A stretch of 64,000 bases of DNA. Origin: Candidatus Heimdallarchaeum aukensis (lineage in GTDB: Archaea; Asgardarchaeota; Heimdallarchaeia; Heimdallarchaeales; Heimdallarchaeaceae). The stretch is from contig CP084166.1 of assembly GCA_021513695.1 (NCBI GenBank), positions 1,536,001 to 1,600,000 on the forward strand, in the 5' to 3' direction. The translations under genes and the position numbers were made by a program. Under the pieces are notes generated by a model. It did not search any database. It was not told the DNA's origin and worked only from the letters and a program-made list of their open reading frames with translations. This document shows positions 11,803 to 63,162 of this stretch, in pieces. Within the stretch, counting starts at the first letter, position 1. Each line of letters starts with the position of its first letter.

Positions 11803-11882
11803 TGTTAACAAAATTTTTCATTAAGAAAAGTGCAATAACTTTCTATCAAAAATTTATTATAATTTTTATTTAAATGTAAATT

Positions 11883-18586: not shown

Positions 18587-18703
18587 ATATTTTTTCTTTT
18601 TTTTTAATTATCTTCTTTTTTTAAACCTTTGTGGTCTCTGAACAAAATTTATAAACTTAGTTTCACTTTTCTTAACAATTAACATAATTTTGAGGTAATA
18701 GAA

Positions 18704-19126: not shown

Positions 19127-19128
19127 AG

Positions 19129-38123: not shown

Positions 38124-38606
38124 TTACACTATCCTTTGTTTTCCTCCAGGAGGATTAATGAAAAATACTGTTAATAGTAATAGAAATATCCCTACAGATT
38201 CCTTAAATGTTACATTATTTACAATGTCTTGTGGTAATCCTTCTCTAAAGGCTGTAATTGCCTGGAAGCCAAAAAACACTATAAAGAGTTGTATAAAGAA
38301 ATATAGTATAACTGTGATAAATGCTCCTCTTATTAGATATCTCAAAAGTTTTCTATCTTCAGCTCTTCTTACTCTACTTAACAAATAATCTGTTACTAAT
38401 AATGATGAAGCTGTTAACACTATTGCACCAAATAGTGGAAAAGCAATTACTAAGCTAATATATCCTACCTGATTTAGTTGCACAATTTCACTGAGATAAT
38501 AATAGTGTGGTAATTGTGCAATCATGGATATTCCAAATAAGATTAAAATACTAGGTAAAGCTGCTTCTTTGTTCCAAAATCTTGATTGTTCACTCATAGC
38601 TTTCAT
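38124..38606 (-). CDS. Hypothetical integral membrane protein (4-5 TM)
   Basis: Hydrophobic throughout. No motif recognised. Confidence 0.4.
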   Translation of the reverse strand: MKAMSEQSRFWNKEAALPSILILFGISMIAQLPHYYYLSEIVQLNQVGYISLVIAFPLFGAIVLTASSLLVTDYLLSRVRRAEDRKLLRYLIRGAFITVILYFFIQLFIVFFGFQAITAFREGLPQDIVNNVTFKESVGIFLLLLTVFFINPPGGKQRIV

Positions 38607-47833: not shown

Positions 47834-49498
47834 ATGTATGGGCAAGGCCAAGTACCAGTGATAGTCCTAAAAGAAGGAACAGAAAGGACAAAAGGAAAAG
47901 ATGCACAGAGAAATAACATAATGGCAGCACAAGTAGTAGCTGAAACAATTAAGACCACCCTAGGTCCAAAGGGTATGGATAAAATGCTCGTTGACGGGCT
48001 AGGAGATATTTTGATATCTAATGATGGTAAAACAATTCTTGACGAAATTGACGTCAAGCATCCTGCAGCAAAGATGATGGTTGAAGTAGCAAAAGCTCAA
48101 GACCAAGAAACAGGAGATGGTACCACTTCAAGTGTTACCCTTGCTGGAGAATTGCTAAAAAACGCTACTGATCTTTTAGACAAACAGATTCATCCTTCAA
48201 TAATTGTTGAAGGCTATAAAGCAGCTGCTGAAAAAGCTGAAGAGATCTTACAAGAATTAGCCAAGCAATTTGATCCTTTTGGCGATGAACAAATTCTGTT
48301 CAAGATTGCTAATACTTCATTAAACAGCAAATCTGTATCTGGCGCTAAAGAGCACATTGCTCAACTAGCAATTAACGCTGTAAAGAAGGTTGCAGATGAA
48401 GATAATGGCAATCATATCGTTGATCTTGATAACATTAAGATTTTACAAAAATCAGGTAAGAGTTTAGCCGAGTCTGAACTTATTGAAGGAGTAATTATTG
48501 ATAAAGAAGTTGTTCACCCTGGTATGCCAAAGCAAGTTAAAGAGGCAAAGATTCTTCTACTCAATCAAAACATTGAGATCGAAAAAGGAGAATTTGACAA
48601 AGAAATTAGAATTAGCGACCCTCTACAGATGCAAAGTTTCTTAGAAAATGAAGAAGCTATGTTAAGAGAGATGGTTGAGCAGATAGCTACTACAGGAGCC
48701 AATGTTTTAATCTGTCAGAAAGGAATCGATGACATGGCCCAATATTTCCTTGCAAAGAAGGGTATTATGGCTGTTCGTCGCGTTAAAAAATCTGACATGG
48801 AGAAACTTTCACGTGCTACAGGAGGAAAAGTAATTAGTAATTACAAAGACGCTAAAGCTGAGGATCTTGGCTATGCTGGACTAGTTGAAGAAGTCAAAAT
48901 TGGTGATGATGATCACGTTTTTGTTCGTGAATGTAAGAATCCTAAAAGCGTTTCTATTATTCTCCGTGGAGCTACAAAATACGTTACTGATGAAGCTGAA
49001 CGTGCTCTTCATGATGCTCTATGTGTAGCTCGTAATGCTGTTGAAGACAAAACCTATTTACCTGGTGGAGGAGCTACTTATCTTGAGCTTGCTAAACAGC
49101 TAAATGTTTTCGCTGAAGAGTTCAAAGACAAACGTCAAATGGCAGTTAAGGCTTTTGCTCAAGCTCTTGAGGTTATTCCTACCACTTTAATTGAAAATGC
49201 AGGTTTAGATCCTATTTCAATCATGAACGAATTAAAAGCTGCACATGCTTCTGAAAACGGTGTTTCTATGGGTCTAAATCTTTTTAAGAATGGTCAAGTT
49301 CTTGACATGTTTGCTGAAGGAATAATTGAACCTCTTCGAGTAGTTAGTCAAGCTGTTAAGTCAGCTTCTGAATCAGCTATAATGATTCTAAGAATCGATG
49401 ATGTAATTGTCGCTAAGGCTTCCTCTCCACAAGGTCCACCTGGCGGTGGTGGAATGGGCGGCATGGGCGGCATGGGCGGCATGCCTGGTATGATGTAA
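47834..49498 (+). CDS. ths: Thermosome subunit (group II chaperonin)
   Basis: [16 protein letters not shown] and VPGGGA motifs, and a C-terminal [16 protein letters not shown] tail. Confidence 0.9.
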
Positions 49499-49577
49499 TT
49501 TTTTTCTTATCAATTTTTTTTATTAACTTTGATTTTTCATTTTCTTACTTTGTTTATTCTTTGGGAAAATACTTTTA

Positions 49578-49904
49578 TTGTTCCTCTCTCACAATGTAGA
49601 TATGACCAAGCAAAATAAATCAAAATTTGATCGCATTACTTGGATTGTCACAGAGTTGATTATTGGCTTTGCTGCCGCAGGTTATGGAGTTTATGGTTTA
49701 TTTAAAGGTTTACCAGAACAAAAGATTGTCCACATAATTATTGCTTCTATTGGTGGGGTTCTATTATTACTTGCTTTTAGTCAGATTCTTATATTAAGAG
49801 GTAAAAAGAAAAGAACTAAAGAAATCAAGCATTGCCCCAAATGTGGAGCTGAAGTCCAAAAAGGAGATGAACACTGCAGAAAATGTGGAGAAAAATTAAA
49901 ATAA
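49578..49904 (+). CDS. Small membrane protein with a C-terminal zinc-ribbon (CPKCG...CRKCG)
   Basis: Two hydrophobic helices followed by a CxxC-x10-CxxC ribbon. Confidence 0.45.
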   Translation: MFLSHNVDMTKQNKSKFDRITWIVTELIIGFAAAGYGVYGLFKGLPEQKIVHIIIASIGGVLLLLAFSQILILRGKKKRTKEIKHCPKCGAEVQKGDEHCRKCGEKLK

Positions 49905-49922: not shown

Positions 49923-50309
49923 TTATTTCCAAACTTTTAGAAACTCTGGCATTTCTTCGAAGTTTACAATTGGTATTGATACGGGCCATCTAGCATCACT
50001 TACTTCATCAGCGAATTCGAACTCTTCCTTTGGACTTGTTCTATATCTTATAAATGATCCTGCAGGAGGTTCATCATTTTCTATCCAGACCACTATTGGA
50101 AGAGCTCTTAAGTTATAGTATCCTAAGCTAGTGTTGAACATGAAAAAAATATTCCTATTCGCTTCTTTTTCATAAAAATATCCAATATAACCAGTCACTC
50201 TATCTGATAAAGTTGAAGCAATGAGTTTTATTATATCTGATAATCCCTTAAGTTTTATTGACGCAGCTTTTTTTATATTATCTACTATTTCATCCATATT
50301 AACCACCAA
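49923..50309 (-). CDS. Hypothetical 128-aa protein of unknown family
   Basis: No motif recognised. It lies immediately downstream of the orphan ATPase c-subunit gene on the same strand. Confidence 0.35.
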   Translation of the reverse strand: MVVNMDEIVDNIKKAASIKLKGLSDIIKLIASTLSDRVTGYIGYFYEKEANRNIFFMFNTSLGYYNLRALPIVVWIENDEPPAGSFIRYRTSPKEEFEFADEVSDARWPVSIPIVNFEEMPEFLKVWK

Positions 50310-50328: not shown

Positions 50329-50634
50329 TTAGAAGATTAATAGAATAGCTACAAGTAGACCATAAATTGCTACTGCTTCAATAAGCACGATGAACAAGAA
50401 GATTTTACCAAAAATCTCTGGTTTTTCAACTAATGCGCCTATACCAGCCGAACCAGCTGAACCCATTCCGAGTGCACTACCGATTCCTGCTAGACCTATT
50501 GCTAGAGCAGCGCCTATAGGTCTCATATCTCCTTCTTCACCTAGAGGAATTTCTGCAGCGAATGTACCTTTTGCGGTTATAATGATAAGCGCAACAATTG
50601 CTAGTAGTCCAATAATCAGATCATTTTTTTTCAT
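50329..50634 (-). CDS. A/V-type ATP synthase proteolipid (subunit c/K)-like protein, orphan copy
   Basis: GAALAIGLAGIGSALGMGSAGSAGIGALVEKPEIFGKIFLFIVLIEAVAIYGLLVAILLIF matches the A-type c-subunit hairpin with the carboxylate in IEAVAIYG. The likely start is the internal ATG at 50634; the ORF track starts at 50730. Confidence 0.6.
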   Translation of the reverse strand: MKKNDLIIGLLAIVALIIITAKGTFAAEIPLGEEGDMRPIGAALAIGLAGIGSALGMGSAGSAGIGALVEKPEIFGKIFLFIVLIEAVAIYGLLVAILLIF

Positions 50635-50834
50635 AATACGTCCCTTTTTCACGTGTTTAAAATTACAAATCATCGTTTCTTTATTAGTTTTTTGTATTGG
50701 ATACTTTTTAATATTGAATACTTTTTTCAATAAAAAAGTTTTAAGAATAACATATTTTATATTTCATGTATAAGTAAGAAAGCAAACCTATAATAAATGG
50801 GAAAACTTTATGATTATTAAGAAAAGATTCTATC

Positions 50835-51452
50835 GTGAGTAAAATGTTTGGAAACTTTATGAGATGGTTATTAGGAACTCAAAAATCAAGTAGAGACCAT
50901 ATAGTAAACCTTAAACTAACTATTCGCAGACTAGAAAGAGCTCAAAGGAAACTGGAGAGAGATGAATCAAGAATACAACTAAAAATGCGAACAGCTATTC
51001 AGCGTGGTGATTTAGAAGGTGCCCGTCTTTATGCTACAGATATTGTTCGTTCTCGTAAGTGGGTTTTAGGTTACCAGCGTTTAGTTTCTCGTATTAATGG
51101 TCTTATTTTTAAACTAGAACGAGCTGATTCTGCTGCTAACTTGGCAGCTGAAATGCATTCTATTGCAGGAGCTCTTCGACAAGCTAACGCTCAATTAAAT
51201 GTTCCTGATTTAGATCATGTTATTCAAGACATGGAACGTAGTATTGATGGAATTGAGGATTCAACTGAAACAATTGAAGATGGAATTGATGATCTTCTTA
51301 TTGCTGATACCGACCCAGCTGAAGTCGATAGGTTAATTGACCAAACAGCTACAGAGATGGGTGTTAGTGTAGGAGGAGAACTCCCTTCAGTAAGCGCTGT
51401 TGCAACAGACGATCTCGAGGAAGAGATTCAAAAATTAAGGAAAAAAGAGTAA
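50835..51452 (+). CDS. ESCRT-III (Snf7/CHMP family) protein
   Basis: 205 aa. N-terminal basic helices (LKLTIRRLERAQRKLERDE...), an acidic C-terminal half and a terminal LEEEIQKLRKK MIM-like helix. Confidence 0.75.
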   Translation: MSKMFGNFMRWLLGTQKSSRDHIVNLKLTIRRLERAQRKLERDESRIQLKMRTAIQRGDLEGARLYATDIVRSRKWVLGYQRLVSRINGLIFKLERADSAANLAAEMHSIAGALRQANAQLNVPDLDHVIQDMERSIDGIEDSTETIEDGIDDLLIADTDPAEVDRLIDQTATEMGVSVGGELPSVSAVATDDLEEEIQKLRKKE

Positions 51453-51467
51453 ATATGAGGTGTTTAT

Positions 51468-52127
51468 ATGGGTATGAAAAACTGGTTATTTGGAACCAAA
51501 CGCAAGGATGATGCTGAAGCTTTAGCTACACTCAAAGCTCAGATCAATCGATATGAGCACGAGTCCCGCAATTTAGAACGTCAAGCTGATGAACAAAAAT
51601 CTTTAGCTGCTAAGATGTTAAAGTCGGGTAATAAAGCTGGAGCTAAACAAGCTCTTAAGCGTCGAGCTATTTATATGAAACGTTTAAATCAGGTTCAAAA
51701 TATGCTAATGAACCTTCAGAGTCAGATTGATAGTATTCAAACTGCAACCTCTACTGTTGAAACAGTAAAGGCAATGGAGTTAGGTACGAAAGTTGTCAAG
51801 ACGAAGATGCAAGAAGTTGATGTAGAGAAAACTGAACGTGTAATGGATGAAGTTATGAGTCAACGTGATGAAATTGAAATGATGACAGAAGCTTTATCTG
51901 ATACTGCACTAAGTGAGAGCATTTTAGATTACGAAGATGATGTCGCAATTGATGATCAACTTGCTCAATTAGAAGCCGAGATGAATCTTGGTAAAACAGA
52001 AGAATTACCAGATCTTTCAGATCTTCCTTCAACTCCATCAGAAAAACCGACTGAAAAAGAAGAAGATACTTCTGACCTTGAAGCCGAATTAGCTTCTCTT
52101 AAGAAGAAGTTAAGTGATGACAAATAA
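51468..52127 (+). CDS. ESCRT-III (Snf7/CHMP family) protein, second paralog (Vps20/32/60-like; begins MG)
   Basis: 219 aa. Same basic-then-acidic helical hairpin organisation, ending ELASLKKKLSDDK. Lies directly upstream of Vps4. Confidence 0.75.
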   Translation: MGMKNWLFGTKRKDDAEALATLKAQINRYEHESRNLERQADEQKSLAAKMLKSGNKAGAKQALKRRAIYMKRLNQVQNMLMNLQSQIDSIQTATSTVETVKAMELGTKVVKTKMQEVDVEKTERVMDEVMSQRDEIEMMTEALSDTALSESILDYEDDVAIDDQLAQLEAEMNLGKTEELPDLSDLPSTPSEKPTEKEEDTSDLEAELASLKKKLSDDK

Positions 52128-52254
52128 TAATAATCAAATTCTTTTTTCAATTCTTTTTTTCATCATTTTAGAAACGAACAGTTTTTTAACGATAATGATG
52201 TTACTAGTTTAGTAATTCAATTAATAGGATTATTCAGTTAGAGAGGTTAAAGAA

Positions 52255-53400
52255 TTGAGCGCGCAAGGACTGATTGAACACGCACGTAAATTTGCAAAAA
52301 AAGCTTATGAACTTGATAAGGCAAAACAATACAATGAGGCAATACCACTTTATCTCGACGCTGCAGAAGCTCTAATGAAAGCAATAAAATTTGAAAGAAA
52401 TCCACAAGTGGGAAAGACATTAAAGAAAAAAGCAGAGATGTACATTGAACGAGCAAAAGATCTAAAAGAAATTATTGAGAAAAAAGCTGAAAAGGGGGCA
52501 GAAACAGGGTCAGACGAAGAATCTGATAAATTAGAAGGAGCAATTAGCGATATCATAGTTACAGAAAAGCCATCAGTTACTTTGGATGATATTGCAGGAC
52601 TAGAAGAAGCAAAACGGAATCTTCGAGAAGCAATAGTGTTACCTCTTGTAAGACCAGACTTATTTAGTGGTGCAAGAAGACCATGGAAAGGGATTTTACT
52701 TTTTGGCCCCCCAGGATGTGGAAAAACTCTTTTAGCAAAAGCAACAGCTGCAGAAGTAGAAGCTACGTTTTTTAATGTTAGTGCGTCCGCGGTTATATCC
52801 AAATGGTTAGGAGAATCTGAAAAATTAGTTAATACATTATTTAAAATTGCTCGTGAAAGGCAACCAAGTATAATTTTCATAGATGAAGTAGATGCTCTTA
52901 CCGGAGCACGTGGTGGCGAGCATGATGCTATGCGCAGAGTTAAAACTGAATTATTAACTTCTATGGATGGTTTATCTAGCTCTGCTCAAGATCGTCTTGT
53001 AGTTATTGGGGCTACTAACCTTCCTGAGTCTATTGATGGAGCTTTTCGCCGTCGTTTTGAGCGTCGTATTTACATTAAGCTTCCAGATTTTGAAGCGCGT
53101 AAAGCTATCTTTCAACTAAATGTCAAAGGAGTGGACTTAGCTCCCGATGTTGATTTTGAATCTTTAGCAGAGATTACAGAAGGTTATTCTGGAGCAGATA
53201 TTGCTATGGTTTGTCGCGATGCTATTATGACTCCTATTCGTGAACTTGATTTATCAGGAGACATTCATGACCCCAATATTAAAGCCAGACCAGTTACACA
53301 AAAAGATTTTCTTGAGTCTATTCAGTCAGTTAATCCTTCTGTAAGTGCAGAAGAAATCGAGAAATATGAGAAATGGAATGAAGAATTTGGTTCAGCGTAA
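52255..53400 (+). CDS. Vps4-like AAA+ ATPase with an N-terminal MIT domain
   Basis: MIT-like three-helix N-terminus (AKKAYELDKAKQYNEAIPLYLDAAEAL), Walker A GPPGCGKT, Walker B IIFIDEVD and a second region of homology; 381 aa. Confidence 0.85.
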   Translation: MSAQGLIEHARKFAKKAYELDKAKQYNEAIPLYLDAAEALMKAIKFERNPQVGKTLKKKAEMYIERAKDLKEIIEKKAEKGAETGSDEESDKLEGAISDIIVTEKPSVTLDDIAGLEEAKRNLREAIVLPLVRPDLFSGARRPWKGILLFGPPGCGKTLLAKATAAEVEATFFNVSASAVISKWLGESEKLVNTLFKIARERQPSIIFIDEVDALTGARGGEHDAMRRVKTELLTSMDGLSSSAQDRLVVIGATNLPESIDGAFRRRFERRIYIKLPDFEARKAIFQLNVKGVDLAPDVDFESLAEITEGYSGADIAMVCRDAIMTPIRELDLSGDIHDPNIKARPVTQKDFLESIQSVNPSVSAEEIEKYEKWNEEFGSA

Positions 53401-53707
53401 AAGGGTGTTTTTATGATTTACCTTTTTACGTAAGTTTTTCGCACTCGGTCTTTCAAGGGAGAAAACAGGAGTTTCATCACTTGATAACTCAACCACAACA
53501 TACAATGAAAGGAAACGTGGTTAAGACAGACGTCATACACGAATCGTGGGAATCATAAAGAAGGAAAAGAAAAAAGTAAGAAAGGAGAAAAGAAAGGAGG
53601 TTATCTCCTTCTTTATTCTACTTTCTTTTCTTTCCTTCACTCCACGAGAGACGAAAAAACAAACAAATAATCCTCTAACAAGAGAGAATGTAAGTTTATA
53701 TTTTCAT

Positions 53708-55161
53708 CTACTGGGGCTGCAACCAATGGCTGAGCCCTTGGCAAACAGTGAAATGAGTGAGACTAAATTTACGACCAGTGAGTAGATCAGTAATAGTTGT
53801 TGCACGGGGGCGGAAAAGAGAACTAAGGAGCAGACGAGCGATATTCATTGCTCCTGTTAGATCAGAGTGGAAGGTGTAATTGCAAGAGGGACAATAAACT
53901 AACCCTCTAACGGGGCGGGTAACTTTTTTTCCGCAACGGGCACAGTGAGATGATGTTCCTCTTTCCTCTATCGTCAGAATTCGGTGAGAGGGAAAACCTC
54001 TAAGTATTAGTGCACGACGGATAAAAGAAAGAACAAGAGCATAGTTCCACTGGTGAAGTTTTCTTCGTGACTTGCGATTAGTTACTCCCTTATTTTTTTC
54101 TCGTCGAATGTATTTAGGATAACCTATAACAACGAAAAGATTATAGATCCGAGCATAAACCTCTATTGTCCACACGATAGCACTTACAAATTGATTGATA
54201 TACGCTCGTCTGACGTTTCTATACCTCCGACGGAGACGTTTGAGAAAACGGTAAACTTGGTGTTTTTTACCCGATTGGTCGTTTAAAGCTGCTTTCCTCT
54301 GAAGACGGGAAAGTTTGAGTTTATATCGATGATTAACTTTATTCCACTGTTTGGTATACTAGAACTTTATTTCTTTACTTGTTACCTTCTTTTTCGGGGT
54401 CAGTAGCACTTCTACCGCAGGAATGTTTATCCCTAGATCTATTCCCAGCACAGCTGGGGGAAGAAAAGAAGAGTCAGAAGAAAGATTATCTCCCTGAAGG
54501 AAAGAAGAAGGAAGAACTTTTGAATGAAAATATATCCACCATTCACGTGTAGAACGTTTGTATCTTATTTCTAAACTTTTTACTCTTTCTTTAATTCTTT
54601 TTGATGAAACTCGCTCATCTCTAAAGGTAACCACAATCGCTGATGAAAACGTGTTTTTCTTTTCCACCTATCTAACGAGTCTCGTATTCCTACCCACCAA
54701 CGAGAAAGAGTGTTATTCTTATCTTTTGGTAGATGGACGAGGATGAACCTTTTTTTATTAATTAATTGTCTTCTTGCTCTCTTTCTTGGAGGACGAGTAT
54801 TGTTAGGTCTATATCCTTGCTCATATAGTTGCACAGCTATATCTCTACATTCTTGAAACTCATCGTGAGAACAATAGGGAAACATTTTCTTCATATCGTG
54901 AGGAACAGTCGTTCTTCTTTCTTCCTCTTTTTTTACTCTCGAGGTCGTTAATGTCAATTCGTCTAATTTTCCTTTATGTACTTTTATTTTCCCTTCTTTT
55001 GCTTTAATACCTATTTTTTTTCTGTTATGGTGTATAATTCTCACATACTTTTCTATTATTCTAGTATCTCTCCCCGTTATTCTCCTTAACTTTTCTTTTT
55101 TTCTCGTCGTCAATACTTCATTCTTCACTCTCACCTTTAACGTTTTGACGACGTCCTCCAT
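53708..55161 (-). pseudogene. Degenerate TnpB (IS200/IS605 OrfB; OMEGA-type RNA-guided nuclease family) split into at least three ORFs by frameshifts
   Basis: N-terminal part LKVRVKNEVLTT...; C-terminal zinc-finger block CARCGKKVTRPVRGLVYCPSCNYTFHSDLTGAMNIARL. Three overlapping minus-strand ORFs (54580-55161, 54359-54667, 53708-54175). GC content is well above the surroundings. Confidence 0.65.
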
Positions 55162-55329
55162 CCTTTTTTTCTCCTCTTATTTTACTCTCTCTTTTTTTCT
55201 ATTTTTTTCTCTTCTTTTACTTCTTCTCTTCCTCATTATACTTTTTTTCCCTATAAAAAGTCCTTTCTTTTCTTTTTTTCTCATTATTCTTCCTCAATTT
55301 TTATATAAAGTTATGTAAAATAGTAAATC

Positions 55330-56130
55330 ATGGCTACAATGGAAAAACAAAAAGATAATGAATTTGAGCAAATTGATCTTGAAAAATTGAAAGAAGAAAA
55401 GAAAATATCAGAAGATAAGCTTAAGCTTATTGAAGCCAGTATTAAGGGATTAAAAGTTTCAGAAGAAGAACTGAAGTCCACGAAACCTATTGTTAGAGAA
55501 GAAGCAAGATTAGAACTAACAGAAGACACAAAGACGAAGCTAATTAAAGAATTTGAGCAAAGTTTACCTGATTGGGTTAACAAGCCTTGGATGTATGTCA
55601 CCCCAAAAAAGGCAAATCAAGTTGAGTCTTGGTTAGACAGTTGGTCATCAGTCATGCTTGATTATACAAAGAAATTTGTTATTCATATTGTTAATGTCAA
55701 TTCTCTTAGAGAAACTTATCCTTTTTGTAATAAGAAAATAAGAAAAGAACTTACCATCGATCAAATTCGTGATATCATCGATTTTCTTGAAACAAAGGGT
55801 TTTGCTCTTTGGATAAATGATAGGACAAAATTCTTTGAGAAACTTTTTGCAAAGATACTTGGAAAACCTTTAACAAAAAAGATCCGTGCAAAGATAGAAT
55901 GGAAAACAAAAGAAGAATTTGCTGAAGATTTACTTAAATGGATGATTGAAACCGGTAGAGTAGTTGAAGTTCACTCTTTATATGATTTAACAAAATATGA
56001 ACAACCCTGGTCTTCTTTACCTTCAGATGATTTAATCCATGTATGCAATTTACTCGTAGAAAAAGGTTCTGCTAGATGGTTAAATAGAGAAAGAACTATA
56101 ATTTCCTTTGAAGCAACAAAGGTATTCTAA
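55330..56130 (+). CDS. ESCRT-II Vps25-like protein (tandem winged-helix) with an N-terminal charged coiled-coil extension
   Basis: About 170 aa C-terminal region with the PWMYVTPKKANQVESWLDSW...IRDIIDFLETKGFALWI pattern resembling Vps25 WH domains. Sits in the ESCRT locus. Confidence 0.5.
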   Translation: MATMEKQKDNEFEQIDLEKLKEEKKISEDKLKLIEASIKGLKVSEEELKSTKPIVREEARLELTEDTKTKLIKEFEQSLPDWVNKPWMYVTPKKANQVESWLDSWSSVMLDYTKKFVIHIVNVNSLRETYPFCNKKIRKELTIDQIRDIIDFLETKGFALWINDRTKFFEKLFAKILGKPLTKKIRAKIEWKTKEEFAEDLLKWMIETGRVVEVHSLYDLTKYEQPWSSLPSDDLIHVCNLLVEKGSARWLNRERTIISFEATKVF

Positions 56131-56183
56131 CTTTAATTTTTATTTTAATTTTATTTATTTACTATTTTTTGTGATGTAATGCT

Positions 56184-56621
56184 ATGTTTAAAAATTATAT
56201 ATTGAATAGACTTTTGAGATTTATGTCTTTAGACGATGAAGAATTACAAAGGATTCGAGAAAAAAAGGCACAACAACTTAGGCAAATTTTAGAACAGAGA
56301 AAATCAAAAATGGAACAACTTAAACAAGAGGAAACAGCGCCAAAAAGCATTACAAAAGAGGACAAGTATCGTTTAATGAATTATTTTCTAACTGATGACG
56401 CTTTTTCTTATTGGAAGAGTCTATATGAAAATCCACAAAAGCATAATACAGCAGAAACAATTTTCATTAATTTGCTCTATCTGATTAAGATTGGTTTTAT
56501 GGAAGGAAAACTTATCTCTCTTCTAGGAATTAAAAAATTAGAAAGAAAAATAGATAATATTCCTTCTAAAATCACAATAAAGAGAAAAGGAGAAAAAGAA
56601 AGATCCAAAGTTTTGGATTAA
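56184..56621 (+). CDS. PDCD5/TFAR19-like putative DNA-binding protein
   Basis: N-terminal LDDEELQRIREKKAQQLRQILEQRK matches the PDCD5 family opening motif, and the C-terminal LISLLGIKKLE...ITIKRKG is consistent with it; 145 aa. Confidence 0.4.
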   Translation: MFKNYILNRLLRFMSLDDEELQRIREKKAQQLRQILEQRKSKMEQLKQEETAPKSITKEDKYRLMNYFLTDDAFSYWKSLYENPQKHNTAETIFINLLYLIKIGFMEGKLISLLGIKKLERKIDNIPSKITIKRKGEKERSKVLD

Positions 56622-56697
56622 TAATTGACTTTTACTTATTAGGTTACATTTATTTAGGATAATGAAAATAAAGTATTAGAAAGGAGCTGATGGATAA

Positions 56698-56934
56698 ATG
56701 AAGTTGAGTATTGTTACCGCAATAGGAGGAGGTCTTTTAGAATTAGATGTTGATAGCCATCAAACAATTGCACAACTTAAAAGAGAAGTTTCAAGAATTA
56801 AAAAGATACCTGCAAATACAGTTATTTTGGTTCATCATGGTCAACAGTTAGATGATGGTGAAACAATTAAGAGTTGCGGATTACAAGAAGGAGATAAACT
56901 CTATCTAATTGCAAGAACAAAAGGTGGACTTTAG
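56698..56934 (+). CDS. Ubiquitin-like beta-grasp protein ending ...KGG-L
   Basis: HGQQLDDGETIKSCGLQEGDKLYLIARTKGG aligns with ubiquitin [30 protein letters not shown]. 78 aa, with a single residue after the di-Gly. Confidence 0.8.
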   Translation: MKLSIVTAIGGGLLELDVDSHQTIAQLKREVSRIKKIPANTVILVHHGQQLDDGETIKSCGLQEGDKLYLIARTKGGL

Positions 56935-57009
56935 CTTTTCTATTTCAAAATTTTTTTAGAAGAATAGAAACTGTTTTATTACTTCTAAAAGATATTTTTG
57001 TGAAAGTGG

Positions 57010-58014
57010 ATGTCTAAAGAAGGTAGATATGCGAGACAGACTCTCATACCTGGTTGGAATCAGAAGAAACTCAACAAATCAACAGTTATTATTGTTGGTG
57101 TGGGAGCAATTGGATCATATGTATCAACGATTTTAGCTTCTTCAGGAGTAAAAAATCTCATTCTAATTGATTTTGATACTATTGAAATCTCTAATCTTAA
57201 TCGTCAATTACTATTTCGGGATGGAGATATTGGAAAATCCAAATCTGAAATTGCAGCTATGCGATTATCGGAACTAAATCCAGATATTAACATTACCTTT
57301 CATCATAAGAAGATGCAAGATTTACCTATTTCTATTTACAAAAAAGCAGATGTCATTGTGGCTTGTCTTGATACCTTCATTGGAAGAAGATGGATAAATT
57401 CACTTGCTGTAAAAATAAACAAACCTTTAATTTTAGGTGGAATGTTTGCTTTTCTAGGAGATGTTCAAGTTGTTTTACCAAAAAAAACTGCTTGCTTTGA
57501 TTGTCAACCTTTAGTTGCAGAAAGAGAACTTGCGCAAGCTTGTACTCCATTCGGAGAAGAAAGGAAGAAAAACAGAGAAGAAAAAGAGGATGAAGCGAAA
57601 TTACCATCTGTAGCCACATTGTCTGCGATTATCGGAGGAATTATGGCACAAGAAGCCTTAAAACTTCTTTTAGACATAGGTGAACCAATCAAGAATTATC
57701 TTTTCTATGATGGATTACATAATGCAACAACAATAATTGAACTTGCAAGAAGAAAAAAAGATTGTCCAACTTGTGGAGAACTATATGAGTTGGAACAAGT
57801 CGAATTTGTGGTAAATAAAGATAATACCGTCAAAGAACTATTAATCCAATTAGGTTTACAATTCGGACTTGAGAGCCCAGACATTATGATTAAAGGGAGG
57901 ATACTCCCTCACGATTCAAAAATCCAAGAACTAGGTATAAAAAATAACATGAAGGTTTTTGTAATGGACAAAAATTTAGCTTCACCAATCAAGTTAAAGT
58001 TAAAGATTGAGTGA
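57010..58014 (+). CDS. E1-like ubiquitin-activating enzyme (ThiF/MoeB/UBA fold) with a C-terminal extension
   Basis: Rossmann GVGAIGSYV with IDFDTIEISNLNRQ; CFDC...CPTC zinc tetrad; about 70 extra C-terminal residues. Lies immediately downstream of the ubiquitin-like gene. Confidence 0.8.
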   Translation: MSKEGRYARQTLIPGWNQKKLNKSTVIIVGVGAIGSYVSTILASSGVKNLILIDFDTIEISNLNRQLLFRDGDIGKSKSEIAAMRLSELNPDINITFHHKKMQDLPISIYKKADVIVACLDTFIGRRWINSLAVKINKPLILGGMFAFLGDVQVVLPKKTACFDCQPLVAERELAQACTPFGEERKKNREEKEDEAKLPSVATLSAIIGGIMAQEALKLLLDIGEPIKNYLFYDGLHNATTIIELARRKKDCPTCGELYELEQVEFVVNKDNTVKELLIQLGLQFGLESPDIMIKGRILPHDSKIQELGIKNNMKVFVMDKNLASPIKLKLKIE

Positions 58015-58025
58015 AAAAAGAAAAT

Positions 58026-58751
58026 TTAGGTGTGTGACAGTCCAGGGAAATAATATTTAGTTCCTTCAGCATAGGAACTATCTACTCTTGCTATACCATT
58101 TTCTTCAAAAAATGATAAGCAACGATTAATTCTTTCCTCTGCCCACCCTGTTCTAAGTAATAGATCTTCTTTTGTTACAAATCCTGTTCTTGAAGCAATG
58201 TTTAATATTACATCATGGTCGGGACTGAATTCAACAGGAGCAAATTCTACTAGTTTCACTCCAGATTCTAAAACTTTGAAAGGTGGAATTAATTTTGAAT
58301 TTATGAGTTTCTCTAATGAACGATACAAGTCATCAATTGTAACTAGTTTTCCAGGTCTAGTTTTATTTAATTGGGTAAACAATTCACCTACAGACATTAT
58401 ACCTCCATTTTCTTCTATAAGTTTTTGACCCAAATCCATGATTTCGTTTGCTAAAACATCATAGAAACCTTTTCCTGTTAATCTATCTTTTAGAGTTGGA
58501 GCTTCTTTCCATTCATATCTCCCTATTTCTGTAGGTAAGCCTAGTTCTTCTCGCAGGCCAGCAAGTTTTTCATAATATTCTTTATTTTCAACTATTTTAT
58601 CACCATATTTCTTTTCAAATTTCTTTAGTTGCTTTTTAACTTGTTTAATATTTTCCAACATTTGTTCTAATTCTTTTATCATTAATTCGGCTTCTTTAAC
58701 TTGGAAAGCTGACTTCACTTTTAATTTCTTTTCAATATCTCTTAAGCCCAA
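58026..58751 (-). CDS. ESCRT-II Vps22/Vps36 (EAP30-domain)-like protein
   Basis: N-terminal coiled coil followed by a tandem winged-helix region (GGIMSVGELFTQLNKTRPG...IDDLYRSLEKL) resembling EAP30. Confidence 0.55.
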   Translation of the reverse strand: MGLRDIEKKLKVKSAFQVKEAELMIKELEQMLENIKQVKKQLKKFEKKYGDKIVENKEYYEKLAGLREELGLPTEIGRYEWKEAPTLKDRLTGKGFYDVLANEIMDLGQKLIEENGGIMSVGELFTQLNKTRPGKLVTIDDLYRSLEKLINSKLIPPFKVLESGVKLVEFAPVEFSPDHDVILNIASRTGFVTKEDLLLRTGWAEERINRCLSFFEENGIARVDSSYAEGTKYYFPGLSHT

Positions 58752-58823
58752 CTTTAATCACTATTTTTTATTTGTCAGTGAGATATAAAAAATATACTAT
58801 TTAATTTCGCAATTAGCTTAGAG

Positions 58824-59132
58824 TTAAAAAAGGAGAGGAAGTCTTCTAATCCACTCTTTAATTGAATTCATAAGCTTTTTAGATTCATTTGGAGGAAGAA
58901 AAGCTGCTAGTTTGTCTTTATAGTTTTTGTATAGTTTTTGATAAACGCTGTCCATTTCATCAACAATTGAATCATTTACCAAATTGATTTTTTTAACAAG
59001 ATGTTTTATCTCTTCCAACTCTTCTAAGATGTATGAACAGTCAATTTTTATTTCTAAGAGATCCATCAACTCGAATAAACTATCTTTTGCTTTATTATAG
59101 GTATTTTCTAAAGATTTTCTCCTAGAAATCAT
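58824..59132 (-). CDS. Small helical hypothetical protein in the ESCRT locus (possibly a Vps28-C/Vps37-like ESCRT-I accessory)
   Basis: 102 aa, predicted all-helical. Lies between the UEV/Vps23-like and EAP30-like genes on the same strand. No motif recognised. Confidence 0.3.
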   Translation of the reverse strand: MISRRKSLENTYNKAKDSLFELMDLLEIKIDCSYILEELEEIKHLVKKINLVNDSIVDEMDSVYQKLYKNYKDKLAAFLPPNESKKLMNSIKEWIRRLPLLF

Positions 59133-59168
59133 GTTTACTCCTCTAAAAAGGCTGGATAAAAGATAGGA

Positions 59169-60638
59169 CTACATATCTTTTAAAATTCGTCTAAATTCGT
59201 TTAACCATCTTGATGCTTGGAATTCTAGTTTTTCACAATCGTCTTCATTTATTATTTCACTTGGTTTATAATTTGAAAGAATGTCTTTCCAGTTTTTCAT
59301 ATCGCTGAGCATCCAATGATCTTGCGGAATAGATGGAAACGAGTGCAAAACATGAATTAGCTCTTCTACGTCAGCCAACAGCAAATCAGCTCGTGCGACT
59401 GATTTAAGCCTTGTTAGATCAATTAATTCAATTGCAGCTGAAACAAAATCAGCTGTTTTTACAGGCATTTTCTTTAAGGATTCAAATGGTATCATTTCAA
59501 CATCTTTAGTTCCAGTTCCTTCAGCCATTTGTAGCAATCTCATTCCTTTGTCAAATCTATTTAGCAGATTTTCTTGCTCTATAAACGAATCGAGATCAAA
59601 TCCACCTAATTGTTCCAGTTTCATTCTTGTTTTGAAAACTGTTCTTATTAGTGATCTTAACTGCTTTTTATATGCAACTTGCTCAATCTCACCATTTTCA
59701 TACCCTCTCGCTAAATTATCTAATGTCACTATTGCTGCATATAAATCAGCTTCAAAATCTAATCTTTTATCTAAATCACTAGGCATTACTTGTCCTCCAA
59801 CATTTTCTAAATAAGCTAATTTTTTATTTGTCTTATAACTTTCCACTGAATATTTTCTATAAAGTTTCAAGTAATCAACACTTGAAAGATCTCCATCATC
59901 AAATTTCTCATTTAATAGCTCTAATAAGTCATTAGATGCTCTTGAACTTGCTTTTAAATCATCGGTTACAGAAATTGTAAGTTCTTTTAATGAATGTGAA
60001 GGCTCAGCTTTCTTGATTAGAGCAGCTCTTTTTTCCTCAATTTGTTTATTTAGTTCGTTTATCTGCTGCTGATACGCTTCTATCTCTGCTTCAATAGTAC
60101 TTTTTTCTATCGATGTTTGACTCCGTTCATTAAAGGATGGTACACTTTGCTTACGTACAGTGTGACGTGAAACTGTTCTTGGTTTCATCGGTTGAACTAC
60201 AGATCTAGACACACTCCTAGCTGTAGACATATGCTTTGTTCTTAATGGTCTTGCAGGAACATTAGCAAATAATCGCCGAATATCATTTATAACTTGATAA
60301 ATATGATAGCGTGGTTTCCATTGAGCGAGTATTTGCAAACTAAGAAAGTCATTGTCGTCAACATTAGGATGATTTACTTTAGGAGTAATTTCAACTTGAG
60401 GAGGAATTCTTGGGAACTCTGGAGAGATATATATTGTAGCATAAACAGTTATCTTCGTTCCTTGAATTATCCCTACAGGGCCTTTCCACTTTCTTAAATT
60501 GCCTCCTACTGGCTCAAATCCTTCAACATTATTATAAATTAATTGCATCTCATTAGCAAGAATCTGATCTAGAGAAATTTGTCTCACCTTTACTCTTCTA
60601 TTATTGTTATAAACTTCAAAGTTTAAAAAATATTGCAT
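59169..60638 (-). CDS. UEV-domain (ubiquitin E2 variant) protein with a central coiled coil; ESCRT-I Vps23/Tsg101-like
   Basis: The N-terminal UBC fold has the HPNV motif, but the catalytic Cys position reads FLSLQIL rather than ICLDIL, so it is an inactive E2 (UEV). A long coiled-coil region and a C-terminal helical domain follow. Confidence 0.65.
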   Translation of the reverse strand: MQYFLNFEVYNNNRRVKVRQISLDQILANEMQLIYNNVEGFEPVGGNLRKWKGPVGIIQGTKITVYATIYISPEFPRIPPQVEITPKVNHPNVDDNDFLSLQILAQWKPRYHIYQVINDIRRLFANVPARPLRTKHMSTARSVSRSVVQPMKPRTVSRHTVRKQSVPSFNERSQTSIEKSTIEAEIEAYQQQINELNKQIEEKRAALIKKAEPSHSLKELTISVTDDLKASSRASNDLLELLNEKFDDGDLSSVDYLKLYRKYSVESYKTNKKLAYLENVGGQVMPSDLDKRLDFEADLYAAIVTLDNLARGYENGEIEQVAYKKQLRSLIRTVFKTRMKLEQLGGFDLDSFIEQENLLNRFDKGMRLLQMAEGTGTKDVEMIPFESLKKMPVKTADFVSAAIELIDLTRLKSVARADLLLADVEELIHVLHSFPSIPQDHWMLSDMKNWKDILSNYKPSEIINEDDCEKLEFQASRWLNEFRRILKDM

Positions 60639-60729
60639 TCAAAAAAAAGAGTCTTTTCTTGAGAAAAAAATATATGAAAAAAAATTGATTATAATTCTAA
60701 ATTACAATAGAACCTAGGAATAAACTCTT

Positions 60730-61272
60730 TTACTTTCTATTTTTGACTAAAAGTGTAGCTAGTTTCACAAATGCTTCTTGAACATGTTCTCCTGTAAGTG
60801 CACTTGTTTTTATGAAATCCAAACTATTGATTTTGTTTTGTAATGATTTACATTCATCATCTGATACAGCAATTTTATCTTCTAAATCATTTTTATTTCC
60901 AACTAAGATGGTAAGGGTGTTCTTTCCACAGTTTTTAACAAGTTCAGAGTTCCATTTCTCTAGATCAGTTAGTGTTGAATTCCTGGTTAAATCGAAAACC
61001 ATCAGTGCTGCTTTTGCTCCTTTAAAGAAAGTATGTCTTATAAACCTAAATCTATCTTGTCCTGCTAGATCCCAAATTGAAAGAGCTACAACTGTATTGT
61101 CCTCTAATGTAACAAATTTCTCACTCGGTTCCATACCTATTGTCATCAGATAACTTTGTTCAAAACGATTATGAACAAAACGTTGTACAAGAGATGTCTT
61201 TCCTACAGCGGCGGCACCTAATAGAAGTATTTTGAAATTGAAATCAGGACGAATTGAACGCATTATTCTCAA
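60730..61272 (-). CDS. Ras/Rab-like small GTPase
   Basis: G1 GAAAVGKTSL, G3 WDLAGQDRF, G4 GNKNDL, G5 SAL; 180 aa. Confidence 0.85.
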   Translation of the reverse strand: MRIMRSIRPDFNFKILLLGAAAVGKTSLVQRFVHNRFEQSYLMTIGMEPSEKFVTLEDNTVVALSIWDLAGQDRFRFIRHTFFKGAKAALMVFDLTRNSTLTDLEKWNSELVKNCGKNTLTILVGNKNDLEDKIAVSDDECKSLQNKINSLDFIKTSALTGEHVQEAFVKLATLLVKNRK

Positions 61273-61275
61273 CTT

Positions 61276-61572
61276 TTACATTTTTTTTGCTTTTACAAGC
61301 TCTTCTTTTAAACTTTTAAGATAGTATGTTTCAAAATTTTCTTCTGCGCGTTTAATAGTAGTAAGAGAAATACAGAGATCTAATATGAATTCATATTGTT
61401 CTTTTTTCTCTTTCTGTGGTTTGAATGCTTTAAATTTTTTTAATAAATACTCGGCTAACTTTGACGCTTCTTTTTTTGTTAATGTTCCTTGCTCATATAA
61501 ATTAATAATTAACTCCATTTTCTCTATAGTAATATCATTGTTAATCTCTTTTAACGACAAAATTTTACTCAT
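61276..61572 (-). CDS. Small helical hypothetical protein, apparently co-operonic with the small GTPase (4-nt spacing)
   Basis: 98 aa, K/E-rich. No motif recognised. Confidence 0.3.
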   Translation of the reverse strand: MSKILSLKEINNDITIEKMELIINLYEQGTLTKKEASKLAEYLLKKFKAFKPQKEKKEQYEFILDLCISLTTIKRAEENFETYYLKSLKEELVKAKKM

Positions 61573-62538: not shown

Positions 62539-63162
62539 TTATTTTTCATCATCAGTTTGCTTCTCTTCTTTTTCTTCTTCATTTTCTTCTTCAAAGAAGT
62601 CATCATCAAACATTAATACACTGTCTAAAACAGAGTCAAGGGAAGGTCTTTCAGGAGGAGTTAATGGTATATCTGCTTTATCTGCAACAGAAATATCTAA
62701 AGATGAAAGATCTGCTCTCGCTCTTCTTCTCGTTGTTGGAGTCGTACTAACATATTGAATATTCTTTAACATTGATTTAACAGAACTGATTTCTTCTTTC
62801 AAATCTTTCAGAGAACTGAGTGCATTAATTTTTTCTAAAAGCTCATCTACTTTCTCTAACTCTCTTTTGGTTTTCTCTTCAAACTTTTTACTTGTTTCAG
62901 TTATCTTTGCAAACTGGCCTTCAGTTATGTTTATTCTTCTAGGAATTGAGGGTTCAGTGGGTGGAAAAAACAATGCAGGAGATGCTTTTAATTCTTCAAG
63001 AGAACCAAATTTTTCACTATGGTGTGCCTTGATTGACGCAAGAATTGCAGTTATAGGGTTTCCATATTCCGTCATTAAATCTTCAATCATATCCCATATT
63101 GCTATAGGAATTGGTACTTCTATTATTCTAGCTATCCTTTGCTTCTTTTTTTGAGAATACAT
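62539..63162 (-). CDS. Hypothetical protein with an acidic C-terminal tail
   Basis: No motif recognised. Poly-E/D C-terminus. Confidence 0.35.
   Translation of the reverse strand: MYSQKKKQRIARIIEVPIPIAIWDMIEDLMTEYGNPITAILASIKAHHSEKFGSLEELKASPALFFPPTEPSIPRRINITEGQFAKITETSKKFEEKTKRELEKVDELLEKINALSSLKDLKEEISSVKSMLKNIQYVSTTPTTRRRARADLSSLDISVADKADIPLTPPERPSLDSVLDSVLMFDDDFFEEENEEEKEEKQTDDEK

Follow-up and report, generated by a model that had tools for sequence, protein, structure and literature searches.

A ubiquitin–ESCRT gene cluster in Candidatus Heimdallarchaeum aukensis and its interruption by a degraded TnpB element

Results

Gene content of the cluster

Proteins encoded in the 64-kb window (the whole stretch of DNA analysed) are 100% identical to Candidatus Heimdallarchaeum aukensis entries; the contig thus belongs to the Heimdallarchaeaceae, within the Asgard archaea, a placement the initial annotation had proposed as a test. 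Positions 50835–61572 carry two convergent gene strings, which we identify, with a probability of about 90%, as the ubiquitin–ESCRT gene cluster of this organism. The plus-strand string runs ESCRT-IIIA, ESCRT-IIIB, Vps4, Vps25, a PDCD5-like protein, ubiquitin and E1; the minus-strand string runs from a 98-aa helical protein through a Rab-like GTPase, a UEV-Vps23-Vps28 fusion and a free Vps28-C-terminal-domain-like protein to Vps22. All nine named components passed the curated Pfam cut-offs, and the Snf7, Vps4, ESCRT-II, EAP30, UEV, ubiquitin and ThiF families were all recovered. Every family assignment behind the earlier description of a eukaryote-like ESCRT plus ubiquitin set within 11 kb held, and with it the reading of the locus as the eukaryotic-signature gene set of Asgard archaea, as did its coordinates apart from one start codon (56184) and one ORF (50329–50730). 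The latter was rejected as an ESCRT gene; it encodes an A/V-ATPase proteolipid (ATP-synt_C).

Compared with Ca. H. endolithica PR6 (88–92% DNA identity to the window), every cluster gene, including the three small ones, exhibited a dN/dS of 0.003–0.13. All of them are under strong purifying selection, and these low values indicate that the ORFs are real genes rather than chance ORFs. Synteny of this gene set extends to 30 genome loci and 12 metagenome loci (~40 Heimdallarchaeaceae loci). Furthermore, the orthologous locus of Candidatus Heimdallarchaeota archaeon AB_125 has a published asCOG annotation that matches gene by gene (Makarova et al. 2024, PMC10936438 Table S2), in agreement with the earlier statement that the broad arrangement is known for Asgard archaea, and its proteins have been characterised biochemically (Hatano et al. 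2022, PMC9192718). The cluster is already published and its components are catalogued; as a set of membrane-remodelling genes it is real and biologically important.

ESCRT-III, Vps4 and ESCRT-II

Two ESCRT-III subunits are encoded on the plus strand, one of the Vps2/24 (ESCRT-IIIA) type (50835–51452; 205 aa; Snf7, 71 bits against a Pfam cut-off of 27.3 bits) and one of the Vps20/32 (ESCRT-IIIB) type (51468–52127; 219 aa; Snf7, 93.8 bits). The first shares 76% identity with its AB_125 orthologue, annotated as Vps24 family (cog.001760), and has a dN/dS of 0.005; the orthologue of the second is annotated as Vps20 family (cog.001938), and the two genes are neighbours in 21/21 loci. The Vps4 AAA ATPase (52255–53400, plus strand) contains MIT (52.3 bits), AAA (144.6 bits), AAA_lid_3 (54.3 bits) and Vps4_C (48.4 bits) domains, and its translation shows the Walker A motif GPPGCGKT, the Walker B motif IIFIDEVD and the pore loop KWLGESE.

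ESCRT-II is represented by Vps25 (55330–56130, plus strand; ESCRT-II, 59.2 bits at residues 87–224; dN/dS 0.036; AB_125 orthologue cog.003176), which carries an N-terminal helical extension, and by Vps22/EAP30 (58026–58751, minus strand; EAP30, 80.9 bits at residues 2–224), which carries an N-terminal coiled-coil/steadiness-box-like extension. The AB_125 orthologue of Vps22 (HeimAB125_14050, cog.002769) homodimerises in vitro (Hatano et al. 2022, PMC9192718).

ESCRT-I fusion and the free Vps28-C-terminal-domain-like protein

The ESCRT-I gene (59169–60638, minus strand) encodes a 489-aa protein that joins a UEV domain (UQ_con, 45.5 bits at residues 47–139), a coiled-coil stalk with the Vps23 core (Vps23_core, 24.7 bits at 227–268, under the Pfam cut-off of 26.8 bits) and a full Vps28 (VPS28, 45 bits at 297–486, the whole profile). 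The UEV domain keeps HPN, has Ser at the position of the catalytic Cys and contains no Cys at all in its E2-like part; among the 19 orthologues read, the catalytic position is never Cys. Judging by these residues, the E2-like domain is catalytically dead. An inactive E2 with a coiled coil had been annotated here, which was correct as regards inactivity but incomplete, the protein being the known Heimdallarchaeal UEV-Vps23-Vps28 fusion. In vitro, ubiquitin binding has been shown for its orthologue HeimAB125_14070 (Hatano et al. 2022, PMC9192718). Binding of UEV to ubiquitin is also documented by surface plasmon resonance.

A 102-aa protein (58824–59132, minus strand) forms a free-standing four-helix bundle similar to the C-terminal domain of Vps28; its closest known counterpart is that domain of the yeast protein (PDB 2g3k, 2j9u, 2j9v, 2j9w). 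It had been put forward as a possible unrecognised ESCRT-I/II subunit: it is indeed ESCRT-I-related, but it is already recognised in the asCOGs (cog.004115, 'Vps28 protein, C-terminal region'). Sequence similarity to Vps28 is undetectable, with no Pfam VPS28 match in 18 members of its family and an hhalign probability of 0.4% against the C-terminal domain of the ESCRT-I fusion. Four-helix bundles resemble many unrelated proteins.

PDCD5-like protein, ubiquitin and E1

The small protein annotated at 56184–56621 as another candidate ESCRT-I/II subunit proved by homology to be a divergent member of the PDCD5/TFAR19 (dsDNA_bind) family and no ESCRT subunit. Its true start is at 56223 (56223–56621, plus strand; 132 aa) instead of 56184 (145-aa ORF). 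The window protein has diverged such that it gives no match to Pfam's model (PF01984), and 4/16 relatives match it at E of at least 0.003; the family profile, in turn, produced full-length matches, of which 8/10 tested exceed the PF01984 cut-off. The motif (D/E)ELxxIRxxK in the N-terminal helix is common to the window protein, human PDCD5 and SSO0352 of Sulfolobus. Homologues are named 'DNA-binding TFAR19-related protein' by JGI, and the AB_125 orthologue is assigned to PDCD5 (cog.000798/arCOG04179). In Heimdallarchaeaceae the gene is positioned beside ubiquitin and E1, adjoining ubiquitin in 17/23 loci. PDCD5 may have a role in the ubiquitin–ESCRT cluster.

Ubiquitin (56698–56934, plus strand; 78 aa; Pfam ubiquitin, 51.2 bits; phmmer against human ubiquitin, E = 8e-10) ends in RTKGGL, that is, GG and one capping residue (L), and such a single-residue cap is found in 24/26 orthologues. 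The neighbouring E1-like ubiquitin-activating enzyme (57010–58014, plus strand; ThiF/Uba5-like; ThiF, 218 bits) shows GVGAIGS and two CxxC motifs (CFDC, CPTC), and has a C-terminal ubiquitin-fold-like tail, with weak, below-cut-off matches to Ubiquitin_5, ubiquitin and ThiS at residues 256–321; its AB_125 orthologue is cog.000308.

The absence of a canonical E2 from the window, as initially annotated, was confirmed by phmmer in all six frames, which detected no second E2; neither RING nor JAB genes occur among the window's other ORFs. This locus does not by itself supply a complete ubiquitylation cascade, since the 64-kb window encodes no E2, E3 or deubiquitinase. This is expected, because the E2, RING and JAB proteins of AB_125, for which two genuine E2s are reported, are encoded at a separate locus.

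Comparison with AB_125 and eukaryotic ESCRT

AB_125 has the same gene set (Vps24-type and Vps20-type ESCRT-III, Vps4, Vps25, Vps22, free Vps28 C-terminal region, UEV-Vps23-Vps28, ubiquitin, E1, PDCD5 and Rab-like GTPase), with 51–78% amino-acid identity to the window proteins, and both loci have AtpK and arCOG04275 neighbours. AB_125 and most other members of the family have the order PDCD5-ubiquitin-E1-fusion-Vps28C-Vps22, whereas in H. aukensis and Ca. H. endolithica, PDCD5-ubiquitin-E1 is relocated after vps25 and the GTPase gene pair abuts the fusion gene. A Znr-PH-coiled-coil-steadiness-box gene, found next to 15 other loci, is absent from both the window and the PR6 locus.

Domains homologous to those of eukaryotic ESCRT are the UEV, the Vps23 core, the N- and C-terminal parts of Vps28, Vps22, Vps25, both ESCRT-III classes and the MIT-AAA Vps4, and the cluster likewise encodes an E1 and a ubiquitin with the GG end. 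Compared with the yeast set (Vps23-Vps28-Vps37-Mvb12; Vps22-Vps36-Vps25x2; Vps20-Snf7-Vps24-Vps2; Vps4), however, the cluster lacks Vps37, Mvb12 and Vps36, as well as ESCRT-0 and Bro1/Alix, and has only two ESCRT-III paralogues. Vps23 and Vps28 are fused, with an extra free Vps28-C-terminal-domain-like protein, and Vps22 is reported as a homodimer in place of the Vps22-Vps36 pair.

Discussion

Proposed pathway

The direct observations are the identities of the genes, their synteny and purifying selection, and the folds of the small proteins; the mechanism, which we consider likely, is drawn from domain content and published work on the AB_125 orthologues. Ubiquitin would be trimmed after GG, activated by E1, and transferred to an E2 and a RING E3 whose genes lie elsewhere in the genome. 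The UEV domain of a dimeric ESCRT-I fusion would then bind the ubiquitylated cargo, and the Vps28 part of the fusion, possibly together with the free Vps28-C-terminal-domain-like protein, would contact a Vps22 homodimer with Vps25 (ESCRT-II). Vps25 would nucleate the Vps20-type ESCRT-III, which would co-polymerise with the Vps24-type on the membrane, and Vps4 would bind the polymer via its MIT domain and take it apart. The process served may be vesicle budding, sorting or division; to our knowledge, no in vivo function has been established for Asgard ESCRT-I or ESCRT-II.

Of the steps above, ubiquitin–UEV binding and Vps22 dimerisation have been shown for the orthologues, and yeast two-hybrid links connect ESCRT-I with ESCRT-II, Vps25 with ESCRT-IIIB, and ESCRT-III with Vps4 (AB_125, Hatano et al. 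2022, PMC9192718). This chain, which leads from ubiquitin through UEV, Vps22 and Vps25 to ESCRT-IIIB, makes it unlikely that ESCRT-III and Vps4 serve mainly cell division, like TACK Cdv, while ubiquitin and ESCRT-I/II serve proteasomal or regulatory ubiquitylation instead of cargo sorting. ESCRT-III and Vps4 are established division proteins in Sulfolobales (discussed in PMC10936438), and a membrane-trafficking phenotype has been shown for no Asgard archaeon; but CdvA is absent from the locus, and the ESCRT-I/II genes are linked tightly and universally to ESCRT-III/Vps4 in Heimdallarchaeaceae.

The GTPase gene pair

The Ras/Rab-like small GTPase (60730–61272, minus strand; 180 aa; Ras, 153.9 bits) shows GAAAVGKT, DLAGQ, NKND and TSAL motifs and a C-terminus without a prenylation cysteine; its AB_125 orthologue is annotated 'Rab-like GTPase' (cog.003850). 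Directly upstream, across a 3-bp gap in H. aukensis, lies the gene for a family-restricted 98-aa four-helix-bundle protein (61276–61572, minus strand). The small-GTPase operon described earlier as lying inside the cluster is present, but at the cluster's edge. The pair occurs together in 22/22 loci and abuts ESCRT-I in the genus Ca. Heimdallarchaeum only, through a genus-specific rearrangement.

The pair may have a role in the ubiquitin–ESCRT cluster. That it constitutes a genuine ESCRT regulatory arm is unlikely; in that reading the 98-aa protein would be either a GTPase effector or an unrecognised partner resembling the ESCRT-I headpiece (Vps28-N or steadiness-box-like). Consistent with such an arm, the pair stays adjacent and within ~3 kb of ubiquitin–ESCRT genes across the family, in Heimdallarchaeum shares the strand of the ESCRT-I fusion gene and lies 91 bp upstream of it, and has a parallel in the Hodarchaeial UEV–ubiquitin cluster, which likewise holds a Rab-like GTPase. 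Furthermore, the top PDB sequence matches of the 98-aa family profile are four yeast Vps28 N-terminal core constructs (E = 0.12–0.22).

TnpB insertion between vps4 and vps25

The transposon relic reported to split the cluster was confirmed as a 1,914-bp insertion with a degraded IS200/605-type TnpB gene (53416–55329, minus strand; Cas12f1-like_TNB, 40.1 bits), found in this genome only among 24 loci: vps4 and vps25 are adjacent in the 23/23 others. Three minus-strand ORF pieces (54580–55161, 54359–54667, 53708–54175) belong to one broken gene. This Cas12f-like copy has the C-terminal zinc-ribbon/TNB domain and matches overall an intact ~500-aa TnpB on another Heimdallarchaeial contig, but differs in being a pseudogene, with one frameshift and one in-frame stop relative to the intact homologue (L029). 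No TnpA was seen with the element, and no second TnpB copy within the 64-kb window.

The insertion sits precisely at the junction of the vps4 stop and the vps25 ATG, where Ca. H. endolithica has only AGAGGTGATTAT, and cuts off vps25-PDCD5-ubiquitin-E1 from the upstream promoter. In Ca. H. endolithica, vps25 is preceded by the Shine-Dalgarno sequence GAGGTGA; in H. aukensis the insertion has pushed this sequence to its far side. At the insertion edge, a TATA-box-like element, TTTATATA (55300–55307, plus strand), can be read ~27 nt before the start codon of vps25; such a distance would be that expected for an archaeal promoter with a leaderless mRNA, and TTTATATA is a possible replacement promoter of vps25. 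A half-disabled cluster, in which a polar insertion leaves vps25, PDCD5, ubiquitin and E1 little or not expressed and the pathway decaying, would accord with the uniquely broken junction and the lost ribosome-binding site, but is very improbable given the four intact downstream ORFs (dN/dS 0.027–0.055 against the sister species), the promoter-like spacing, and a TnpB that has already decayed, yet left clean genes downstream. That decay also indicates that the insertion is not brand new.

Components of the ubiquitin-ESCRT cluster

We assigned the components of the cluster through ORF listing and Pfam scans, judged by Pfam gathering scores, which confirmed every one named in the initial annotation (two ESCRT-III proteins, Vps4, Vps25, Vps22, a UEV protein, ubiquitin, E1, and a GTPase). 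The two ESCRT-III (Snf7) genes, Vps24-type ESCRT-IIIA (50835–51452, +) and Vps20-type ESCRT-IIIB (51468–52127, +), scored 71 and 93.8 bits, respectively, against a cut-off of 27.3; their C-termini, DDLEEEIQKLRKKE and DLEAELASLKKKL, appear MIM1-like (MIT-interacting motif) in a by-eye reading only, and ESCRT-III–Vps4 contacts have been reported for Asgard systems by yeast two-hybrid. The Vps4 gene (52255–53400, +) exceeded the cut-offs for MIT (52.3 bits), AAA (144.6 bits), and Vps4_C (48.4 bits) and also matched AAA_lid_3, with Walker A (GPPGCGKT), Walker B (IIFIDEVD), and the pore loop (KWLGESE) legible in the translation. ESCRT-II is represented by Vps25 (55330–56130, +; PF05871, 59.2 bits) and Vps22/EAP30 (58026–58751, −; PF04157, 80.9 bits). 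Pfam scans of the window ORFs revealed no Vps36 subunit (GLUE/PH domain), which is reported absent from Asgards, with a Vps22 homodimer in its place (Hatano et al. 2022, PMC9192718).

The left boundary of the cluster had been placed at 50329; by Pfam, the ORF at 50329–50730 (−) is no ESCRT gene but a lone A/V-ATPase proteolipid (ATP-synt_C), whose internal Met is probably the real start (~101 aa). This gene and that of a 128-aa arCOG04275-type protein (49923–50309, −) are divergent from ESCRT-IIIA, and the two are adjacent in 16/16 loci of the family Heimdallarchaeaceae.

The ESCRT-I gene (59169–60638, −), annotated initially as an inactive-E2 (UEV) protein with a coiled coil, matched UQ_con (45.5 bits). 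Alignment to UBE2D2 and UBC13 revealed an E2 fold with HPN kept, Ser in place of the catalytic Cys, and no Cys anywhere in the domain; the catalytic position was never Cys in 19 readable orthologues. The Vps23 core scored 24.7 bits against PF09454, slightly below the 26.8 cut-off, and the VPS28 match (PF03997, 45 bits) spanned profile positions 2–188 of 188 within residues 297–486. The inactive-E2 reading therefore stands, and the description as a whole was too small: the protein is a UEV-Vps23-Vps28 fusion. A stalk and steadiness box have been described for its orthologue in Candidatus Heimdallarchaeota archaeon AB_125 (Hatano et al. 2022, PMC9192718).

Neither Vps37 nor Mvb12 was found in the window, and its small helical proteins match neither. 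The gene for the Znr-PH-coiled-coil-steadiness-box protein (AB_125 As_001-p_01324), which the literature predicts to be an Asgard ESCRT-I component, was absent from both the window and the locus of the sister species Ca. Heimdallarchaeum endolithica PR6; 15 other loci carry it beside their ESCRT-III genes (L006–L026, from other Heimdallarchaeial genomes, compared). Where this gene would stand (47834–49904), the window has a thermosome gene and one for a small membrane zinc-ribbon protein.

Ubiquitin, E1, and the location of E2

The ubiquitin gene (56698–56934, +; PF00240, 51.2 bits) ends in RTKGG-L, and GG followed by a one-residue cap is found in 24/26 orthologues. The E1 gene (57010–58014, +) matched ThiF at 218 bits; its product has two CxxC motifs, and its C-terminus gives a weak signal for a ubiquitin fold.

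The initial annotation saw no canonical E2 in the window, and our searches bear this out: phmmer queries with two eukaryotic E2s returned the UEV as sole match among all window ORFs in six frames, and Pfam scans of the other ~40 window ORFs found housekeeping metabolism instead of RING or JAB genes. The 64 kb thus hold no catalytically competent E2, E3, or deubiquitinase. In AB_125, a separate locus groups an E2 with a membrane RING protein, a JAB/MPN protein, and a second ubiquitin-like gene, and two genuine E2s have been counted in that genome (Hatano et al. 2022, PMC9192718). The missing E2 is therefore the family norm and no anomaly.

A known system and its proposed mechanism

The finding is real, was correctly interpreted, and is already known; it is no new kind of system. 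This follows from a public, annotated genome (circularised; PMC8813620), from orthologous genes annotated gene by gene in asCOGs (Makarova et al. 2024, PMC10936438), and from biochemical tests of the AB_125 proteins, in line with the earlier statement that the broad arrangement is known. Two window proteins are 100% identical to Ca. H. aukensis NCBI entries, which speaks against the non-Asgard lineage that had been raised as a refutation. The details initially described as unusual amount either to norms of the family or to minor events at strain or genus level.

The published ubiquitin-ESCRT model is the best-supported one, and from it we infer the cellular process. Once trimmed after GG, ubiquitin would be activated by E1 and then conjugated by an E2 and an E3 whose genes lie elsewhere; the UEV domain of a dimeric ESCRT-I fusion would then read ubiquitin, and its Vps28 elements would relay to the Vps22 homodimer with Vps25, and on to Vps20-type and Vps24-type ESCRT-III, with Vps4 presumably recycling the ESCRT-III polymer. 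In vitro work on the AB_125 orthologues has demonstrated binding of ubiquitin by the UEV and dimerisation of Vps22 (Hatano et al. 2022, PMC9192718), and ESCRT-I–ESCRT-II, Vps25–ESCRT-IIIB, and ESCRT-III–Vps4 contacts have been observed by yeast two-hybrid. Ubiquitin-ESCRT clusters of Asgard archaea rank as central evidence that the membrane-trafficking machinery of eukaryotes is older than eukaryotes themselves, and the window offers a clean instance of one, in a complete genome of the clade closest to eukaryotes.

Gene order across relatives

We investigated synteny through tblastn of every window protein against the loci of relatives. An EAP30 search returned 30 genome loci, all Heimdallarchaeota/Heimdallarchaeaceae, the best being PR6 with 98% amino-acid identity; DNA identity between the window and PR6 was 88–92%. 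The family order runs from a wH protein through a 98-aa protein, the GTPase, a 207-aa protein (opposite strand), PIG-L, a PDCD5-like protein, ubiquitin, E1, the fusion, and a 102-aa protein to Vps22; facing this string on the other strand are Vps25, Vps4, ESCRT-IIIB, and ESCRT-IIIA, then AtpK and the arCOG04275 protein. Counting genes that are adjacent and co-directional per locus, the fusion neighbours the 102-aa gene in 28/28 loci, which in turn neighbours Vps22 in 28/29; E1 and the fusion are paired in 25/26, Vps4 and Vps25 in 23/23, the 98-aa gene and the GTPase in 22/22, and the PDCD5-like gene and ubiquitin in 17/23.

The window and PR6 are exceptions to this order: the PDCD5-ubiquitin-E1 block is relocated behind vps25, and 91 bp separate the 98-aa/GTPase pair from the fusion gene downstream of it. 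The GTPase and the fusion were neighbours in 1/16 other loci, that of PR6, so the GTPase position is a genus-specific rearrangement. The small-GTPase operon, which the initial annotation put inside the cluster, stands at its edge. A single inversion does not account for the difference, since the orientations of PIG-L and the 207-aa gene do not fit, and at least two events are needed. That this rearrangement shifts PDCD5-ubiquitin-E1 and 98-aa/GTPase as intact modules is possibly a useful minor point.

The 207-aa protein (62539–63162, −; uncharacterised asCOG cog.009137) is kept beside the GTPase pair across the family and has no Pfam family; its N-terminal domain is conserved, its centre forms a coiled coil, and a conserved PPERPxLDSVLDSxLxFDD motif precedes its acidic tail. 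In PR6 (L001, 16164–17353), ~1.2 kb separates ESCRT-IIIA from AtpK, compared with ~50 bp in the window; the sister species carries an insertion here.

A TnpB relic between vps4 and vps25

The transposon relic reported to split the cluster was corroborated as a broken TnpB insert between vps4 and vps25. PR6 has nothing that corresponds to this segment (53416–55329, 1,914 bp); there, AGAGGTGATTAT alone spaces the vps4 stop from the vps25 ATG. Compared with the intact homologue at L029, a locus from another Heimdallarchaeial genome, the TnpB gene within the segment (−; Cas12f1-like_TNB, 40.1 bits) shows a single frameshift and a single in-frame stop; its RuvC-like nuclease ORF is not intact, and it is thus a relic. 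No second TnpB copy was found in the window.

The insertion displaced the Shine-Dalgarno sequence of vps25. At its right edge (55300–55307), ~27 nt upstream of the vps25 ATG, lies TTTATATA, which, judging from its sequence and position, could drive transcription of a leaderless vps25 mRNA. The genes downstream are still under strong purifying selection, with dN/dS values (vs Ca. H. endolithica) of 0.036 for Vps25, 0.027 for the PDCD5-like protein, 0.043 for ubiquitin, and 0.055 for E1. This natural "operon-split" allele beside an uninterrupted sister species may be of some minor use. At L029, the intact TnpB (11274–12695, ~40% identical) directly follows vps22, and vps25-vps4-ESCRT-III do not follow; TnpB elements may have landed repeatedly in the ESCRT cluster, or the L029 contig may be rearranged.

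The small helical proteins

We then evaluated the three small proteins proposed as unrecognised ESCRT-I/II accessory subunits. The ORF at 56184–56621 has its true start at 56223 (+) and encodes 132 aa. A profile built from 28 members of its family retrieved 23 proteins from among 1.84 billion representatives; 8/10 tested distant matches (E = 4e-15 to 5e-4) pass the PF01984 dsDNA_bind cut-off, a link that is transitive for the 132-aa protein itself, whose direct Pfam match is sub-threshold. Several homologues are named by JGI as PDCD5/TFAR19-type, and the AB_125 orthologue is cog.000798/arCOG04179 PDCD5. With hhalign, the family aligned to an approximate human PDCD5 sequence over the first 17 residues only, and it is the profile search that carries the assignment. 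By homology, the protein is a predicted PDCD5/TFAR19 (PF01984 dsDNA_bind) member and not the ESCRT subunit that had been suggested. Less likely still than the GTP-switch reading considered below, this divergent PDCD5-like protein, locked to ubiquitin-E1 in the family, might serve the ubiquitin system of archaea as a cofactor; in Lokiarchaeum, a PDCD5 gene adjoins an E2. The nearest PDCD5 relative outside the family (P0064) lies on a 767-bp contig with an uninformative neighbourhood.

For the 102-aa protein (58824–59132, −), structure prediction from shallow alignments (8 and 5 rows for the small proteins) gave a four-helix bundle of up-and-down topology that can be superposed on solved structures of the Vps28 C-terminal domain. 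By sequence, PF03997 was found in 0/18 family members, hhalign to the fusion's own Vps28 C-terminal domain gave 0.4% probability, and Vps28 was not among the matches of a PDB profile search. The fold is consistent with the proposed role as an ESCRT subunit; the sequence profile shows no similarity to Vps28. The NCBI name, YtzH-like, was rejected (Pfam 25.8 bits, below cut-off, in 3/18 members only). A single-sequence database search returned the protein itself alone, and a search with the concatenated 98-aa and 102-aa alignment returned 12 proteins, every one from Heimdallarchaeaceae.

The 98-aa protein (61276–61572, −) exhibited no significant sequence or structural similarity to the ESCRT-I headpiece hairpin (Vps28 N-terminal core/steadiness box). 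UPF0175 was rejected as a family assignment (E = 2e-4, below cut-off, 2/12 members), and a metagenome scan found the same family only. By hhalign, the 102-aa and 98-aa families matched each other at ≤1.6% probability, as did either family with the UEV, stalk, Vps23 steadiness-box, Vps28-N, Vps28-C, Vps22-N, and Vps25-N segments of the locus.

The partner of the 98-aa protein is a Ras-superfamily, Rab-like GTPase (60730–61272, −; PF00071, 153.9 bits) with G1–G5 motifs (GAAAVGKT, DLAGQ, NKND, TSAL) legible in the translation. We consider it unlikely that this obligatory, Heimdallarchaeaceae-restricted pair constitutes an unrecognised GTP-switch module steering the ubiquitin-ESCRT-I/II recruitment site, captured in the genus Heimdallarchaeum into the transcription unit of the fusion, 102-aa protein, and Vps22. 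As an invariant, uncharacterised partner of the GTPase, the 98-aa protein may nonetheless merit minor note.

Other genes in the window

Zero Pfam matches were obtained for a 660-aa ORF (34593–36575, +) even at E = 0.01, and the ORFs at 2455–3450, 10979–11752, 28507–28983, and 38124–38606 had no Pfam match. Histidine-utilisation enzymes, comprising urocanase, an aromatic amino-acid (histidine) ammonia-lyase, and an imidazolonepropionase-like amidohydrolase, are scattered at 8990–10879 (−), 43131–44663 (−), and 46219–47490 (+). Tandem DUF1246/DUF1297 (PurP-type ATP-grasp) purine-biosynthesis paralogues (11883–13037, + and 13300–14295, +) adjoin GMP synthase and a glycine-cleavage operon at 17426–22066. 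The RtcB tRNA ligase (22207–25182, +) contains a large intein (Intein_splicing over residues 108–605 of 991), and its cofactor archease (37617–38045, +) is encoded 12 kb away.
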